Part shown: in pieces, positions 1,434 through 42,768 of the stretch
Layout: each line of letters begins with the position of its first letter
How positions within the stretch are numbered: position 1 is the first letter of the stretch
IMG/VR virus record: IMGVR_UViG_2531839663_000008
Location: 1-42,768 of that record
DNA from: a virus
Taxonomy: Duplodnaviria; Heunggongvirae; Uroviricota; Caudoviricetes
Direction: 5' to 3' (one strand)
DNA: 42,768 bases
Translations under genes and position numbers: made by a program
The notes under the pieces: generated by a model
Seen by the model: only the letters and a program-made list of their open reading frames with translations
Told to the model about the DNA's origin: nothing
Databases searched by the model: none

Positions 1434-1675
1434 CCAACCTGCCCGGGCAGGGAGCGGAGACGGCGCATGCCGGTCATCGCTGTGGCCACGTAGCTCGCCT
1501 TTCGGTTCACCACCTCCACCCAGACTTTCACGCCTTCAACCTTCACCGTATAAGTCTCTTTCATCTTGCTTCGCCCATAGTCGCCATATGTTTGCAAGTG
1601 AGCCGCCAGCGCAACATCGCAAGCGCGGCGACCAATAGGTGATTGCTTACTGCGATTAATCAGCTTCATCATCAC
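1430..1675 (-). CDS. Hypothetical phage protein
   Basis: 81-aa ORF, 4-nt overlaps with both neighbours in a co-directional operon. Confidence 0.4.
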   Translation of the reverse strand: MMMKLINRSKQSPIGRRACDVALAAHLQTYGDYGRSKMKETYTVKVEGVKVWVEVVNRKASYVATAMTGMRRLRSLPGQVG

Positions 1676-2556
1676 TGCACTCCCAAAGTGGCTACGACAT
1701 CACTCGCTGTTTCGCGGGTACTGCCTTTGCTGGATATAGCCCGGCGAGCACTGACGCGGTGCAGCGTGAAGCCGTGCTGTTCGTAAAGTTCAATTACGCG
1801 CGGAGCGGTAGAATTGCTGATCACCACTTTTGCCCCCCGCTGGTGGGCTGCCACACAGCTTTCCGTAAGTTCTACCTGGCTATCCCATGAGAACCCACCA
1901 GCCGCATAGTTAGTGAAACCAGCGGTGCCGGGCAGCGGCTCATAAGGCGGATCGCAGTAAACGACGTCACCATCACCTGCCAGCGCGAGCGTGCGCCTGA
2001 AGCCTGCATTCATGAATACGCATGCGTGAGCCTTCCGCTTAAATGCCCTGATCTCTTCTTCCGGGAAATATGGCGCTTTATATTTCCCAAAGCCGACGTT
2101 AAAAAAACCGTCCAGGTTATAACGGATCAGCCCGTTGAAGCAGTGCCGGTTGAGGTAAAGGAACGCTGCTGCGCGCTCGACCGCATCCAGCCGCTGCGCG
2201 TTGAATGCTTCACGAATTACCGTGTAGTTTTCGGCATCATTCAGATGCCTGAATGCCTTCATTGCCTCATAGATCACCGAGTCGGGGACCACCGCCAGCA
2301 TCTGATACAGGTTAATCAGGTCAGCGTTGACGTCAGCCAGAAGAAAGCGTTCGTGCTTGTCTGAGTTAAGGAACACCGAGCCGCCACCCACAAAAGGCTC
2401 AATAAGGCGTTTACCTGCGGGGATCAAACGATCCAGTTCCGGCAGCAGCGAATATTTGCCGCCAGCCCATTTAAGGAACGGGCGCTGCCAGCTTCGCAGC
2501 GCCGGTTCTTCTATGGGCATCGCCGCAGCTCCACTGCAAACAGAGCCGTATCTCAT
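1672..2556 (-). CDS. dam: DNA adenine methyltransferase, Dam family (GATC-type N6-adenine MTase)
   Basis: 294 aa; N-terminal KWAGGK and central DPPY motif typical of Dam/alpha-class N6-adenine MTases. Confidence 0.8.
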   Translation of the reverse strand: MRYGSVCSGAAAMPIEEPALRSWQRPFLKWAGGKYSLLPELDRLIPAGKRLIEPFVGGGSVFLNSDKHERFLLADVNADLINLYQMLAVVPDSVIYEAMKAFRHLNDAENYTVIREAFNAQRLDAVERAAAFLYLNRHCFNGLIRYNLDGFFNVGFGKYKAPYFPEEEIRAFKRKAHACVFMNAGFRRTLALAGDGDVVYCDPPYEPLPGTAGFTNYAAGGFSWDSQVELTESCVAAHQRGAKVVISNSTAPRVIELYEQHGFTLHRVSARRAISSKGSTRETASDVVATLGVQ

Positions 2557-3617
2557 GCTGCGACCTCAAAGCTCTTTGCCGTAATAGCTTGGATTAGTCT
2601 CACCGAAGCAGCTTTTTGTGAAGCAACGCTGGCAATAACCGTCGCTCTATCTTTTTCAGTGCTGGCGCAGACACCGGACCAGGATGAAATGAGGAAGAAA
2701 TTCTCCAACTCACTCATAGTGGAATTATTTACTAACTCCTCAATCATCTGCACAATGATGTGTGCAGGGCGATGCCGTAGTAGTTCCTGCATTGCGTAGC
2801 CAAACGCATTGATCATCACCGCGTGGAACTGGATGTAATCCCGCTTATATTCAGCAGGCGTACAACCATGCCTAATTCCCTCGATGGCTGTTAGCTTGAG
2901 CCATGCCTCCCAAATGTCATAGATGTCACTAGTAGCAAGCTCATCCCCATTGACAGAGAATTTTGCAGTTGCATCACTCAGGGGTTTGAAGCTAATCCAG
3001 AGATCGCTTTTCGCCGGAACCACGTTGTGTTCAAAGTCTGTTATTTCTGAGAACACGGCATGGGATGACAAAAACGAAACCATATCTTGAGCAATTTTAT
3101 CCCTACCGTTATAGGCCATATTGATGGCCGCTGATGGCTTCGATACGTTGTTGTTGATGTCGGAAAAGAACTGCTGGCGCGTTTTGAGCGGCAGTTGGTG
3201 TGTCAGCATCATTGGGATGTGAATAGGCTCTCCGTAAGTGCGGCAGAACTCCGCAATGCCTGCGGCGCGATGCTGACCGTCAAACAGTTTAATCTCCGCA
3301 TCCATTGGGAATCGCGCAACACCCACATTCGTATTGCCAAACTCTTCGAACTCAATGAGTGAGTCGCAGTTTCCAACCAGCGGCGGGATGATGAACGGCT
3401 CTTTTTTCTCGTAAGCTGTTCGCAGATACTCATAAAACTTCTTCGCACGTGCTGGATTGAGTTCTCGCTGAGAACGCTCAAGCGTATTGCCGTGGTTATC
3501 TGATGCCAGAACGCGAGTTAGCGCGCGCGCTGGGACTGTCATCATCAACACAACCGTATTTCCCTGTAAGCCTCTTGATGCCGGGAATTCAAAGAAATAG
3601 TCACCAATTTTGCTCAT
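2553..3617 (-). CDS. DGQHR-motif protein (DndB-like, ParB/Srx superfamily)
   Basis: Literal FDGQHRAAG motif in the N-terminal third; start placed at second ATG, which has a GAGGA RBS about 9 nt upstream; stop overlaps the dam start by 4 nt. Confidence 0.6.
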   Translation of the reverse strand: MSKIGDYFFEFPASRGLQGNTVVLMMTVPARALTRVLASDNHGNTLERSQRELNPARAKKFYEYLRTAYEKKEPFIIPPLVGNCDSLIEFEEFGNTNVGVARFPMDAEIKLFDGQHRAAGIAEFCRTYGEPIHIPMMLTHQLPLKTRQQFFSDINNNVSKPSAAINMAYNGRDKIAQDMVSFLSSHAVFSEITDFEHNVVPAKSDLWISFKPLSDATAKFSVNGDELATSDIYDIWEAWLKLTAIEGIRHGCTPAEYKRDYIQFHAVMINAFGYAMQELLRHRPAHIIVQMIEELVNNSTMSELENFFLISSWSGVCASTEKDRATVIASVASQKAASVRLIQAITAKSFEVAA

Positions 3618-3694
3618 GCTTCCGTCCTCTAACATTTAATTCTTCAACATGGGATGGCGCACCGCGCCAACCCTGATGTCGTCGTGAGCGTGAG

Positions 3695-8525: not shown

Positions 8526-9203
8526 TTATGGGATGTTTAGTATTTTGGCATCAACCACAACGCCGATGATTTTGCAGTTTCCATTAATTTCTAGCATTGG
8601 ATATGCGGGGTTAAGGGGCTTTAGGAAGCGTCTGCCGGCATCGATTACAAGCTTCTTAAAGGTCGCTTCGTTATCGCCTTCTAGCTTCGCGACAACCAGC
8701 TTTCCGTTGCGCGGCTCGACTTCAGGATCAACAAGTATCGCTGCTCCCTCGGGTATGCTCAGTCCAGCCGGGGAGGTCATAGAATCCCCTTTAACGTCCA
8801 GCCAGAATGAATCTTCTGAGCAGTCAACAGTCGTGTCATACCAGCGATCTATCGCTCTTCGGTGATAAGGTTCTACAGCTTCCATCCATTGCCCCGCGCT
8901 TACCCAGCTGATTACAGGATAACTTCCTTTTGTCTCGTTCAGTCCTCGAAATGCAACGTTCGAAGGTTCTTCACTGGCGTGTAAAACATCCATCCAGCCA
9001 AAAGGCAGATCAAGCGCAGTTTCAATTTTGCGAGCCATCTTATCGCCGATATTGCGATGAGGGTTTGGTCCCAGTAGCTGGCTAAGCGCAGCCGGACTTG
9101 TCTCGATGAGCTCGGCAAACTGCGCTTTGGTCATTCCAGACTCGTGCTGACGCTTCTCGTACAGCGCTTCCAGGTTGGCTTTTCTGATTTCTTTATTTTC
9201 CAT
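8526..9203 (-). CDS. cI: CI-like prophage repressor (HTH domain plus S24 LexA-like peptidase domain)
   Basis: Start placed at MENKEIRK...; C-terminal half has S24-type layout with a GDSM motif; flanked by operator arrays and divergent from cro-like gene. Confidence 0.8.
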   Translation of the reverse strand: MENKEIRKANLEALYEKRQHESGMTKAQFAELIETSPAALSQLLGPNPHRNIGDKMARKIETALDLPFGWMDVLHASEEPSNVAFRGLNETKGSYPVISWVSAGQWMEAVEPYHRRAIDRWYDTTVDCSEDSFWLDVKGDSMTSPAGLSIPEGAAILVDPEVEPRNGKLVVAKLEGDNEATFKKLVIDAGRRFLKPLNPAYPMLEINGNCKIIGVVVDAKILNIP

Positions 9204-39107: not shown

Positions 39108-39996
39108 GATTGTACGATATCAGGGAGATGTTCGGGCTTTTGCCTCTGATGCACAGGGAATGGAAAGAACCGTGTTTGGTGGAACAAATCAGGCGGATGA
39201 CCTGACCTCGCAAATTACGGCATCTTTCCTTCGCGGATGGGGCATTGTTGGCGCTTCCGAACACCCCTCGCTTGAGGACTTCAATGCGGCAATGTATGCA
39301 ATGAGTCAGTTCATTGCGTATCAGCACCAAATGGGGGTTCCAGAGTGGCATGCAGAACAGGAATATCATATCGGTTCGATCTGCACACATAACGGTGAAT
39401 CTTATCAGTCCTTACAAAATGCAAATATTGGTAGCCAGCCGCCATCAGCAAAATGGACTCCTGTATTAACGTCAAAAAACGGTCTCGCAAACCTTCGTTT
39501 GGGAGCGGGTGCACCTGCCATCGGTATTCCGTTCTTCTGGCCATCCTCGGCGATGCCTAATACTGTTATGACAGAATGGGCCGATATGGTGTTTTTGAAG
39601 TTCAACGGGGCGACATTCTCAGCGGCTACTTACCCGAAACTGGCACTGGTAATCCCCAGCCTGACGCTACCAGATGCTCGCGGTGAGTTTCCGCGCATCT
39701 GGGATGACGGGCGAGGCGTTGATAGTGGGCGGGCGCTTTTATCTACTCAGGGTGATGCAGTGCAACGAATGACGGGTTCATTGTCGCAAATGGTGTATTC
39801 AATTGCTCAACAAGCATCCGATATAAATGGCGTATTTAGTGCGACATCAGGCACACCTAATATTGTGCAGGCGTACTCATCAGCTGGCGCATTACGCTAT
39901 ATGAATGTTAGCTTTGATACACAAAATGTCGTGAGAACATCAACAGAAACTCGCTCCCGCAATATCGCGTTTAACTTCCTCGTAAGGGCGAAATAA
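39100..39996 (+). CDS. Tail fibre protein, current variant (N-terminal constant part outside, C-terminal part inside the invertible segment)
   Basis: 298 aa; contains the left crossover-like site at 39457-39482; followed by tail fibre assembly gene. Confidence 0.6.
   Translation: MSKIVRYQGDVRAFASDAQGMERTVFGGTNQADDLTSQITASFLRGWGIVGASEHPSLEDFNAAMYAMSQFIAYQHQMGVPEWHAEQEYHIGSICTHNGESYQSLQNANIGSQPPSAKWTPVLTSKNGLANLRLGAGAPAIGIPFFWPSSAMPNTVMTEWADMVFLKFNGATFSAATYPKLALVIPSLTLPDARGEFPRIWDDGRGVDSGRALLSTQGDAVQRMTGSLSQMVYSIAQQASDINGVFSATSGTPNIVQAYSSAGALRYMNVSFDTQNVVRTSTETRSRNIAFNFLVRAK
39457..39482. repeat. Left inversion crossover site (candidate)
   Basis: ACTCCTGTATTAACGTCAAAAAACGG; shares the CTCCTGT core and flanking AAACGG with the right site in inverted orientation. 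Confidence 0.45.
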
Positions 39997-41024: not shown

Positions 41025-41471
41025 TTACTCACCAACAGCCCACCAACTGTAATTCATCGATACCGTGTCGCTGGTTGATGACGTTCTGTAAGCAGAATTA
41101 AAACCGGTTAACGTTGGGCCTTCTGCCGTCATCACGAACCCTCGCCCAGCGCCTAAAGGCGCACCGCCATCACCAGAATGAGTAAGCATGGCGCAGTCCG
41201 CTTTTTTGGGGAAAGGGATGCTGAATGTAATTCTCATTGTTTGCGTCGATAATGTCGGCGTAACCGCACCACGACCATATTGCAGGATTTTCCCGTTGGG
41301 TAATTTCATCCATCCATCACCACTGGCAAAAGAGGCCATGTCCGGTATCTGATTTTCCCCTGTCCCAACATTTCGTTTTGCCGCTTCTCCCAAACCAACC
41401 TTTTTAAAACCCTCAAGTATCTGGCGATCTCTCGCCGTTTCTCCTGTTTTCACAACAGGAGAAATACCCAT
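41025..41471 (-). CDS. Alternative tail-fibre C-terminal segment, expressed only after inversion
   Basis: 148-aa ORF whose 5' end coincides with the right crossover site; the ATG in the ORF track is probably not a real start. Confidence 0.55.
   Translation of the reverse strand: MGISPVVKTGETARDRQILEGFKKVGLGEAAKRNVGTGENQIPDMASFASGDGWMKLPNGKILQYGRGAVTPTLSTQTMRITFSIPFPKKADCAMLTHSGDGGAPLGAGRGFVMTAEGPTLTGFNSAYRTSSTSDTVSMNYSWWAVGE
41435..41467. repeat. Right inversion crossover site (candidate)
   Basis: CCGTTTCTCCTGTTTTCACAACAGGAGAAATAC, internally palindromic (TTCTCCTGT / ACAGGAGAA), immediately upstream of the invertase ATG. Confidence 0.5.
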
Positions 41472-42021
41472 GATTTACGGCTATGCCCGAGTATCAACAA
41501 ACCACCAGGACACCGAACTTCAGCGAATCGCGCTCGAATCAGCAGGGTGCGAACACATAATGGAAGAGCATGCCAGCGGTAGAAAATCAAACCGCCCCGT
41601 ACTGAAGCGCCTAATTACGGCGATGCATACGGGAGATGAGTTGGTGGTCTGGAAGCTGGACAGGATTGGGCGTAACGTTTTACATGCGCTGCTGATGTTT
41701 CAGCAACTACAGGAGAAGGGCATTAACTTCCGAAGTATTACCGATGGTGTTGATCTCAAAACAGCCAGTGGTCGCTATAACTTTCGCAACATCCTCTCTG
41801 CGGCACAATACGAATCCGACCTTAATAGTGAGCGCACTTTGGCGGGTTTAGCTGTTGCCAGGGCAAAAGGTCGTGTTGGTGGCAGAAGACCAAAGTTTAC
41901 TGACGATCAGTGGAAGGAAATTGGTGAACTGATAGCTGCCGGAGAATCCAGACAGATTATTGCCAGCAGGTATAATGTTGGCATGTCCACGCTGTATAAG
42001 AAGTTTCCCGCTGGATGCTAG
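41470..42021 (+). CDS. Serine recombinase, DNA invertase (Hin/Gin/Cin/Pin family)
   Basis: 183 aa; N-terminal IYGYARVSTNHQDTELQ with catalytic Ser, central resolvase domain, C-terminal HTH. Confidence 0.9.
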   Translation: MIYGYARVSTNHQDTELQRIALESAGCEHIMEEHASGRKSNRPVLKRLITAMHTGDELVVWKLDRIGRNVLHALLMFQQLQEKGINFRSITDGVDLKTASGRYNFRNILSAAQYESDLNSERTLAGLAVARAKGRVGGRRPKFTDDQWKEIGELIAAGESRQIIASRYNVGMSTLYKKFPAGC

Positions 42022-42114
42022 ATAGTTGCTGTGGGCCGTGATTTTACGCCACGACCCACAGCTGTAGGCCAGGTGTTCATGCCGTGGCGCTGGCGCAAGT
42101 ATAGGGGGAATCAC

Positions 42115-42357
42115 TCATTCAGCAACAAGCCAGAACTCTGCTTCTTCAAACATTTCCTGAACCACACGGCTAATCTGCTCCTTCTCATGCTTGCTGGCGT
42201 CAGTATTGATCGCCGGCAACGTCATCATAGGTTTCACCCTCACATCAGCATCAGGGAAGATACGGTGAACCCTCCTGGTCAACTCGCCCAGAATGATATC
42301 TTTTGCACCGGGCAGACCATCAAAATTCCTTTTGTCATAAACGAGTTCCACGAACAT
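42115..42357 (-). CDS. dinI: DinI-like DNA-damage-inducible protein
   Basis: 80 aa; ELTRRVHRIFPDADVRV ... ISRVVQEMFEEAEFWLVAE closely parallels E. coli DinI (ELSRRIQYAFPD ... ISEILQETWESADDWFVSE, from memory). Confidence 0.8.
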   Translation of the reverse strand: MFVELVYDKRNFDGLPGAKDIILGELTRRVHRIFPDADVRVKPMMTLPAINTDASKHEKEQISRVVQEMFEEAEFWLVAE

Positions 42358-42372
42358 TGCTCATTGCTCCTT

Positions 42373-42416
42373 TACTGGATGGGTATACAGTATTTATACT
42401 GTGTTTTTATCCAGCA
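42373..42416. promoter_or_regulatory. Two LexA (SOS) boxes in the divergent dinI-like / umuD-like intergenic region
   Basis: TACTGGATGGGTATACAGTA (42373-42392, matches TACTG-N10-CAGTA) and TACTGTGTTTTTATCCAGCA (42397-42416, one half-site degenerate). Confidence 0.7.
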
Positions 42417-42435
42417 TTCAAGAGAGGGCGTAAAC

Positions 42436-42768
42436 ATGGGCTTTCCTTCACCATCTACCGACTATATAGAGCAGCGGGTTACGCCAGCCAGTGTCTGCAT
42501 GACTCCCGACAGTCGCATCCTCGAGACGTCGGCGGGTTATGCGATCATCGTCCCGGTCACGCGCCCACAGCAGGGTGATGCGCTGTTGATTCTGTCCGGA
42601 GGTCGGACGCAGTTTGCGAAGCTTAGGGGGAAAGCGTTAATCACGGATGACGGCGAAGCGATCGAAGGTGATGCAGCTGAAGAGGCTGAGGTTATGAGGC
42701 GGGTGACGCACTTTATCAACAGCACTGATGCTGCGATACCTCTTGAGGCGGCATTGGCGCAGTTTTGA
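42436..42768 (+). CDS. UmuD'-like protein (starts at the position equivalent to the UmuD cleavage product)
   Basis: Start ATG with AGAGAGGG RBS downstream of the LexA boxes; N-terminus MGFPSPSTDYIEQR parallels UmuD' GFPSPAADYVEQR; no SGDSM-type catalytic Ser motif seen by eye. Confidence 0.55.
   Translation: MGFPSPSTDYIEQRVTPASVCMTPDSRILETSAGYAIIVPVTRPQQGDALLILSGGRTQFAKLRGKALITDDGEAIEGDAAEEAEVMRRVTHFINSTDAAIPLEAALAQF

Follow-up and report, generated by a model that had tools for sequence, protein, structure and literature searches.

What is encoded by the small gene pair at the 3′ end of IMG/VR virus record IMGVR_UViG_2531839663_000008, a Caudoviricetes sequence that we analysed over its whole length of 42,768 nucleotides (the window)? 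Two divergent open reading frames (ORFs), 78 bp apart, lie within its final 650 bases, and the original prediction regarded them as an SOS module composed of a dinI-like gene and a pre-truncated UmuD′-like gene. The latter, on the plus strand (42436..42768), runs from an ATG at 42436 to a TGA at 42766-42768, the terminal bases of the window, and encodes a protein of 110 amino acids beginning MGFPSPSTDYIEQR. Our analysis identified this product as an S24 protein of the UmuD′/HumD lineage, reduced in size and inactive as a protease, which starts at the UmuD′ N-terminus, and we call it mini-UmuD′ or mini-HumD, a UmuD′-like protein with a non-catalytic S24 fold.

The relationship to UmuD was most direct at the N-terminus. 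BLASTP aligned residues 2-15 of the plus-strand protein with UmuD 25-38 at 71% identity, and phmmer against PDB aligned residues 2-37 with UmuD 25-61 (E-value 0.08). Because both alignments begin at UmuD residue 25, the protein starts exactly at the position of the Cys24/Gly25 cleavage product, as had been predicted. Pfam S24 (PF00717) gave no match in the protein even at E-values up to 1, and the NCBI HumD model (NF051876) reached only 25.7 bits over residues 1-29, far under its cut-off of 120. The match to PHROG 3469, “UmuD-like protein”, had an E-value of 1.1e-40, with residues 1-98 placed on profile positions 1-99 of 106. By score, the protein is thus placed in a separate mini family, outside the HumD family and S24. 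When a diverse alignment of this family was compared with an alignment of HumD and UmuD by hhalign, 106 columns were aligned with a probability of 99.05% (E-value 2.1e-18), collinear from the arm to the C-terminal strand (VMRRVTHFIN versus VFGVITYIIN), and in this alignment the plus-strand protein is about 23% identical to HumD/UmuD. A shallow mini-family alignment had covered only 18 N-terminal residues, and the improvement came from adding the representatives of the 50% identity clusters.

Mini-UmuD′ relatives fell into 652 clusters at 90% identity in a search of a 5.8-billion-protein collection, and into 243 clusters at 50% identity in an exhaustive profile search. All of the 652 start with MGF(P/V)SP, their length stays between 104 and 111 amino acids, and every one is named “hypothetical protein”. 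Their sources are Escherichia, Citrobacter, Leclercia, Enterobacter, Atlantibacter and related genera, and they include phages of E. coli, Citrobacter, Enterobacter, Leclercia, Klebsiella, Cronobacter and Erwinia. The elements kept from UmuD′/HumD are the N-terminal arm GFPSPxxDYxE, a short post-arm helix and the C-terminal strand. Arm residues G2, F3, S5, P6 and D9 are nearly invariant, and few segments of the family are conserved as well as the arm and the C-terminal strand (mean column identity 0.88 and 0.90). An acidic “DDxPV” tail is shared with HumD, not with UmuD; the protein as a whole is acidic, with a conserved DDGEAIEGDAAEEAE stretch. Codon comparison with 44 relatives gave a median ratio of nonsynonymous to synonymous substitution rates (dN/dS) of 0.14 (range 0.08-0.27), so that the gene is a functional one under purifying selection and not debris.

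The catalytic centre of the S24 proteins is gone. The single gap in the hhalign alignment, 10 residues long, falls on UmuD Gly58-Ser67 (GDSMIDGGIS), the loop that bears the nucleophile Ser60, and MAFFT independently placed the same gap, at 11-12 residues, in four members from E. coli, Erwinia and Cronobacter phages. Besides, the column of UmuD Lys97 holds Ala61, which is invariant among the closer members of the family. With a gap over UmuD 58-68 and Ala61 in place of the lysine, the protein has no Ser-Lys catalytic dyad (UmuD Ser60 and Lys97), and as it starts M-G-F-P-S-P it also has no N-terminal pro-segment with a Cys/Ala-Gly cleavage site. The earlier observation by eye that the SGDSM motif is missing was confirmed by both aligners, and the suggestion that the protein may be non-catalytic is supported; none of three marks of an ordinary umuD, namely an intact dyad, a longer protein and an umuDC operon, was seen. 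An AlphaFold2 model built from the diverse alignment is all-β, with a predicted local distance difference test score (pLDDT) of 70-80 in the core and below 50 in the arm and tail; an earlier model on the shallow alignment (pLDDT 57) was unusable. Foldseek ranked LexA, UmuD on RecA (8GMT) and UmuD′ at the top for this model, which predicts a β fold of the LexA/UmuD type.

The assigned start codon is preceded by a Shine-Dalgarno sequence, read as GAGGG at 42424..42428 on the plus strand, 7 nt 5′ of the ATG. We also considered a longer protein, since the frame is open back to 42031 and contains an in-frame ATG at 42379, inside the first LexA box described below. This start was rejected for several reasons: it has no Shine-Dalgarno sequence and lies upstream of the predicted -10 element, all three nucleotide differences from E. 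coli Nissle 1917 in that stretch (3 of 3) are non-synonymous, and all family members start with MGF, usually overlapping the stop codon of the preceding gene. As a separate observation, MGFPSP is the start in the NCBIfam HumD model and in most HumD sequences, and HumD database entries of 148-167 amino acids (P0123, P0130 and P0137) seem to carry starts over-extended through LexA boxes.

The intergenic region contains two CTG-N10-CAG palindromes. LexA box 1, TACTGGATGGGTATACAGTA, is located at 42373..42392 and LexA box 2, TACTGTGTTTTTATCCAGCA, at 42397..42416. With a position weight matrix trained on E. coli LexA boxes from the literature, box 2 was the best site of the whole window (22.0 bits) and box 1 the second best (21.4 bits), while the third-best site had 10.4 bits and the maximum over 50 shuffled windows was 18.9 bits. 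Their heterology indices are 6.1 (box 1) and 5.7 (box 2), within the span of the training boxes (2.3-12.2), and box 2 resembles the uvrB box. In 10 related contigs box 1 is kept at -63 and box 2 at -39 from the start codon. The near-consensus box described originally was thus found where it had been placed, and the divergent pair does share LexA boxes; the description of the second box as degenerate was wrong, as it scores equally well.

Both boxes overlap predicted promoters. A promoter scan reported a sigma-70-like promoter for the plus gene (42371..42400, TTTACT-18 nt-TATACT, 9 of 12 matches), in which box 1 occupies the spacer, and box 2 begins within the -10 hexamer (42397-42400 in common) and extends downstream. 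A putative dinI promoter was read by eye on the minus strand (42393..42421), with TTGAAT (42421-42416) and TATAAA (42398-42393) separated by 17 nt. Its spacer is box 2, save a 1-nt overlap with each hexamer, and box 1 begins 1 nt past the -10; the scan did not report it because a T is required at position 6 of the -10, and its assignment is accordingly tentative. With two boxes of functional-range heterology index over both predicted promoters, as in an SOS-regulon operator, SOS (LexA) control of the gene pair is well supported in silico, and in vivo LexA would be expected to repress both promoters.

The minus-strand gene (42115..42357) encodes 80 amino acids matching Pfam DinI (PF06183; 67.2 bits against a cut-off of 24.2, E-value 1.6e-18) and PHROG 189, “RecA filament binding protein DinI” (1.6e-20). 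As it stays under the NCBIfam DinI equivalog cut-off (41.8 versus 111 bits), we regard it as a DinI-like paralogue. No ORF was found in the window downstream of dinI, up to the convergent invertase gene. Between the stop codons of these two genes lies an imperfect GC-rich hairpin (42031-42065, GCTGTGGGCCGTG ... CACGACCCACAGC), which may be a bidirectional terminator; it has no T-run and hence was not called by the terminator scan.

The promoter region is also known from another context. E. coli Nissle 1917, like many other genomes, has this dinI and LexA spacer opposite another gene, whose product of 129 amino acids begins MGFPSPAADYVETR and is annotated by NCBI as “HumD family translesion DNA polymerase” (NF051876, 222 bits; Pfam S24). 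The window and Nissle share 91% nucleotide identity from dinI across the spacer to nucleotide 17 of the plus gene. In a three-way DNA alignment, the window follows the Nissle dinI-humD cassette through codon 6 and the mini gene of another type of cassette (that of contig L029) from codon 7, which places the crossover in the conserved GFPSP codons. The window cassette is, judging from this alignment, a recombinant. Around the mosaic junction (window 42330-42460 compared with L002 and L029), the GFPSP codons appear to be a recombination hotspot at which the bodies of UmuD′-like genes are swapped. The HumD family is named for HumD of phage P1, which the title of McLenigan 1999, as cited in PMC11541004, describes as functionally homologous to UmuD′. 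The idea of a UmuD′ that is born activated was right about the pre-truncated start; pre-processed phage proteins of this kind, starting M-GFPSP like the window protein, are already established by HumD of P1 and Nissle, so the start position alone is not novel.

To see the usual neighbours of the mini gene, we counted gene layouts in 80 related IMG/VR viral loci retrieved with the closer mini-family alignment. Independent of layout, a LexA box of at least 14 bits lies upstream of the mini gene in 78 of 80. The layout of the window, with two boxes and a divergent dinI, was found in 10 loci. In 68 of the 80, there is one near-consensus box, some 275 nt before the start codon of the mini gene; about 35 nt after it comes a gene for a 79-amino-acid protein (PHROG 3893), and then the mini gene, whose start overlaps or abuts the stop codon of the 79-amino-acid gene, an arrangement of translational coupling. 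The proposal of DinI as co-regulator thus fits the divergent pair with shared boxes here, but not the family at large, in which the 79-amino-acid gene is the usual partner. This gene is not in the window; examples are L011 5762-6001, L016-L018 and 68 of L029-L098, and its product had no Pfam, NCBIfam or PDB match. One phage record calls it “DNA polymerase V”, with no visible basis. In the characterised phages mEp390, Flotzy, phiES15 and Midgardsormr38, the two-gene operon lies between the tail-fibre genes and attP/int. A umuC homologue was found by tblastn neither in the window, which ends at the stop codon of the ORF, nor in 100 other loci (L001-L100), nor in the 6-8 kb downstream in the genomes carrying the identical gene, in agreement with what was originally noted for the window. 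Since umuC is not nearby, any link to DNA polymerase V (Pol V) must run through the UmuC of the host.

The residues by which UmuD contacts RecA were compared as well. Cryo-electron microscopy and mutagenesis have located Y52, residue 54, D91, E93 and F94 of UmuD in the groove of the RecA filament, while F26 and P29 of the arm touch RecA in the UmuD complex (PMC9926225). Y52 and E93 do not vary across UmuD and HumD, position 94 always has an aromatic residue (Phe/Tyr), and position 91 is acidic in most sequences. In the mini family the hhalign columns of Y52, D91, E93 and F94 hold R27, G55, R57 and T58. As these groove residues are not conserved, the part of the original prediction that made the protein a modulator of RecA filaments is weakened.

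How, then, could such a protein act? LexA on the two adjacent boxes would cover the back-to-back promoters and both genes would be silent until DNA damage. The dinI-like gene would then supply a DinI-like RecA-filament binder, and removal of the initiator Met from the mini protein, expected because residue 2 is Gly, would give the same N-terminus as that of RecA-processed UmuD′. Without the Ser60 loop and Lys97 the mini protein is no protease and can therefore act by binding only. The arm, the post-arm helix and the C-terminal strand build the UmuD′ dimer, whose interface is formed by that strand, and the mini protein would most likely dimerise too, forming heterodimers with host UmuD/UmuD′ or occupying UmuC, by which Pol V activity would come under phage control from the onset of SOS induction. 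We infer that Met is removed, that the protein dimerises, what it binds and in which direction it acts. We favour a decoy or damping role over activation, given that the mini family does not keep the residues with which UmuD docks on RecA*. Our preferred reading, held tentatively and at somewhat less than even odds, is that the mini protein, as an analogue of UmuD′, forms pairs with UmuD/UmuD′ of the host or occupies UmuC, damping Pol V being likelier than supplying it. In its favour, the mini gene shares the slot, the dinI/LexA promoter and the first six codons with the bona fide HumD gene of Nissle.

Several points weigh against this reading. The middle of the protein matches UmuD at the profile level only, pairwise BLAST seeing just 14-16 N-terminal residues, and the residue-level assignments (Lys97 to Ala, and the RecA contacts) may be off by 1-2 columns. 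The AlphaFold2 model is only moderate, with a mean pLDDT of 65.7 and a predicted template modelling score of 0.47. Most relatives co-translate the mini gene with the 79-amino-acid protein of unassigned function, which may be the true partner instead of a host Pol V component. The direction of the effect, inhibition or activation, is a guess, and our literature searches found no study of the mini family.

Among the rival explanations, the mini protein might be an activator like HumD, which replaces UmuD′ and forms an active Pol V-like complex with host UmuC, so that translesion synthesis starts immediately, with no need of RecA-mediated cleavage. P1 HumD is a precedent, the locus and promoter are those of humD, and HumD has the arm, the C-terminal strand and the acidic tail in common with the mini protein; moreover, the catalytic residues of engineered UmuD′ are dispensable for mutagenesis. 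However, the score against the HumD model and the low identity to HumD/UmuD given above, the loop deletion, the replacement of residues invariant in UmuD and HumD, and a usual operon partner of 79 amino acids that is not a polymerase make this unlikely, though it deserves consideration. A decaying, non-functional humD remnant is suggested by the internal deletion, the lost catalytic residues and the failure to match Pfam; such debris would hardly be spread over hundreds of clusters at a conserved length, with dN/dS of about 0.14, a conserved LexA box and, in most relatives, translational coupling, and we think it highly improbable.

Two further explanations place the target elsewhere. The mini protein could compete for RecA* filaments together with DinI, as a non-cleavable pseudo-substrate in the groove that slows the cleavage of UmuD, LexA or CI. 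All known S24 substrates and DinI bind this same groove (PMC9926225), the gene is co-regulated with a DinI homologue in the window, the protein is acidic with its conserved stretch, and the RecA-touching arm residues F26 and P29 are kept as F3 and P6. The core UmuD contacts (Y52, residue 54, F94, D91, E93) are nevertheless not conserved, and only 10 of the 80 loci have the gene paired with dinI, so we consider this improbable. About as improbable is a modulator of the prophage switch, that is, a LexA-controlled module of antirepressor type, alone or with the 79-amino-acid partner, whose target would be the S24-like C-terminal domain of CI-type repressors (compare Gifsy GfoA/GftA, 186 Tum and N15 AntC). 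The window prophage encodes a λ-CI-type repressor with an intact S24 domain (8526..9203, minus strand; Pfam HTH_3 and Peptidase_S24, 1.8e-29), in whose translation the motifs KGDSM and FKKL can be read along with an Ala-Gly site, and CI of mEp390 likewise has an intact Ala-Gly site and Ser/Lys residues. As both repressors are cleavable, no antirepressor is needed; nor does any ORF follow dinI in the window, and neither the mini protein nor the 79-amino-acid protein has a match in the Gifsy-2 right end. Coming back to the UmuD′-analogue reading, a wider form of it is possible and rather doubtful: mini-UmuD′ proteins (about 105 amino acids) might be an uncharacterised class of LexA-triggered phage effectors, usually with the 79-amino-acid partner, with nothing but the UmuD′ arm and dimerisation elements kept on a gutted S24 scaffold. 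As decoys they would sequester UmuD/UmuD′/UmuC of the host, or a different S24 protein (a repressor, for instance), and let prophages switch host error-prone repair, or the induction of a rival, on or off during SOS.

The gene pair is best explained as an accessory (“moron”) cassette, inducible by SOS, that a lambdoid E. coli prophage carries at its tail-fibre/att end. Two complete E. coli genomes, MS 115-1 among them, carry the identical gene (99.9%). Behind the mini gene these genomes have a gene with a hemerythrin domain (Pfam 6.5e-13) and a second dinI, which in MS 115-1 (block at L001 8961-9757) has two CTG-N10-CAG boxes of its own (L001 9714-9733 and 9738-9757), and after them ssrA. The same block adjoins the yciI/ompW region, not ssrA, in 24 other contigs. 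As the block occurs at two insertion sites (ssrA and yciI/ompW), it is prophage-borne, and the prophage runs about 1.3 kb past the window. A near-identity DNA search of a phage collection gave no match. The window also has an invertible tail-fibre segment. Bounded by inverted repeats (39489-39505 and 41387-41403), it carries alternative fibre C-termini together with tail-fibre-assembly genes and adjoins a Hin/Gin/Cin-type invertase gene (41470-42021; Pfam Resolvase and HTH_7); among near-identical prophages it occurs in both orientations (L004 versus L005). At the other end, the early region of the window (1672-3635, minus strand) encodes a 294-amino-acid protein with a DPPY motif, by eye a putative adenine methyltransferase, next to a 360-amino-acid ORF.

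In enterobacteria, SOS mutagenesis and the antibiotic-resistance mutations driven by stress arise mainly from Pol V (UmuD′2C), the activity of which is set by the availability of UmuD′. Widespread prophage genes under a LexA signal appear to encode a ready-made, uncleavable UmuD′ look-alike, which could shift host mutation rates up or down in lysogens and influence prophage fitness after DNA damage. Besides, strong conservation of the residues on the P′ side of the cleavage site of UmuD (GFPSPAxDY) in these never-cleaved proteins points to a second, unexplained function of the arm in UmuD′. PHROGs and RefSeq phage records already carry the family under the label “UmuD-like protein”; for the LexA-controlled mini version (no catalytic loop, conserved arm, usually a 79-amino-acid partner, never umuC), no characterisation was found in the literature searches.

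Among known systems, the Gifsy prophages carry a LexA-controlled dinI-antirepressor-irsA operon (Lemire et al. 2011, PMC3121763). They resemble the window in having at the prophage end a dinI homologue with a LexA box, apart from the immunity region, which ties the prophage directly to SOS; 186 Tum and N15 AntC may be named here too. In Gifsy the antirepressor follows dinI in one operon and the repressors are uncleavable, whereas in the window the second gene is divergent and S24-like, nothing follows dinI, and CI is cleavable with an intact S24 domain. The possibility that irsA itself is a mini-HumD was dropped, as tblastn of the mini protein on the Gifsy-2 right end found nothing significant. 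Separately, a 208-amino-acid ORF beginning MCGRF lies there (L101 13402-14028, minus strand), on the dinI strand about 1.3 kb past the dinI stop. By eye it resembles an SRAP/YedK-type protein and is presumably irsA, and it suggests that SOS cassettes at prophage ends gather DNA-damage-tolerance genes.

E. coli UmuD′, the processed subunit of Pol V (PDB 1UMU, 1AY9 and 8GMT), is made by cleavage and keeps the Ser-Lys dyad and a umuC in its operon, whereas the mini protein has none of these and is about 20% identical to it overall. HumD of P1 and Nissle is, like the mini protein, phage- or prophage-borne with an M-GFPSP start and no adjacent umuC, and Nissle HumD also has the same dinI and double LexA box region, C-terminal strand and DDxPV tail. 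The mini protein is 19 residues shorter than Nissle HumD, with a deletion of 10-12 residues at the Ser60 loop and Ala at the Lys97 column, and in comparison with HumD and UmuD its equivalents of Tyr52, Glu93 and Phe94 are replaced and no Pfam S24 match is obtained. The family to which it belongs is PHROG 3469 (mEp390 gp26, phiES15 gp52, Flotzy and Midgardsormr38 gp34), and it is 48-53% identical to the members from characterised phages. In those phages the mini gene stands second in an operon after the 79-amino-acid gene, while the window copy is free of this gene and uses the bidirectional promoter of the dinI-humD cassette instead.
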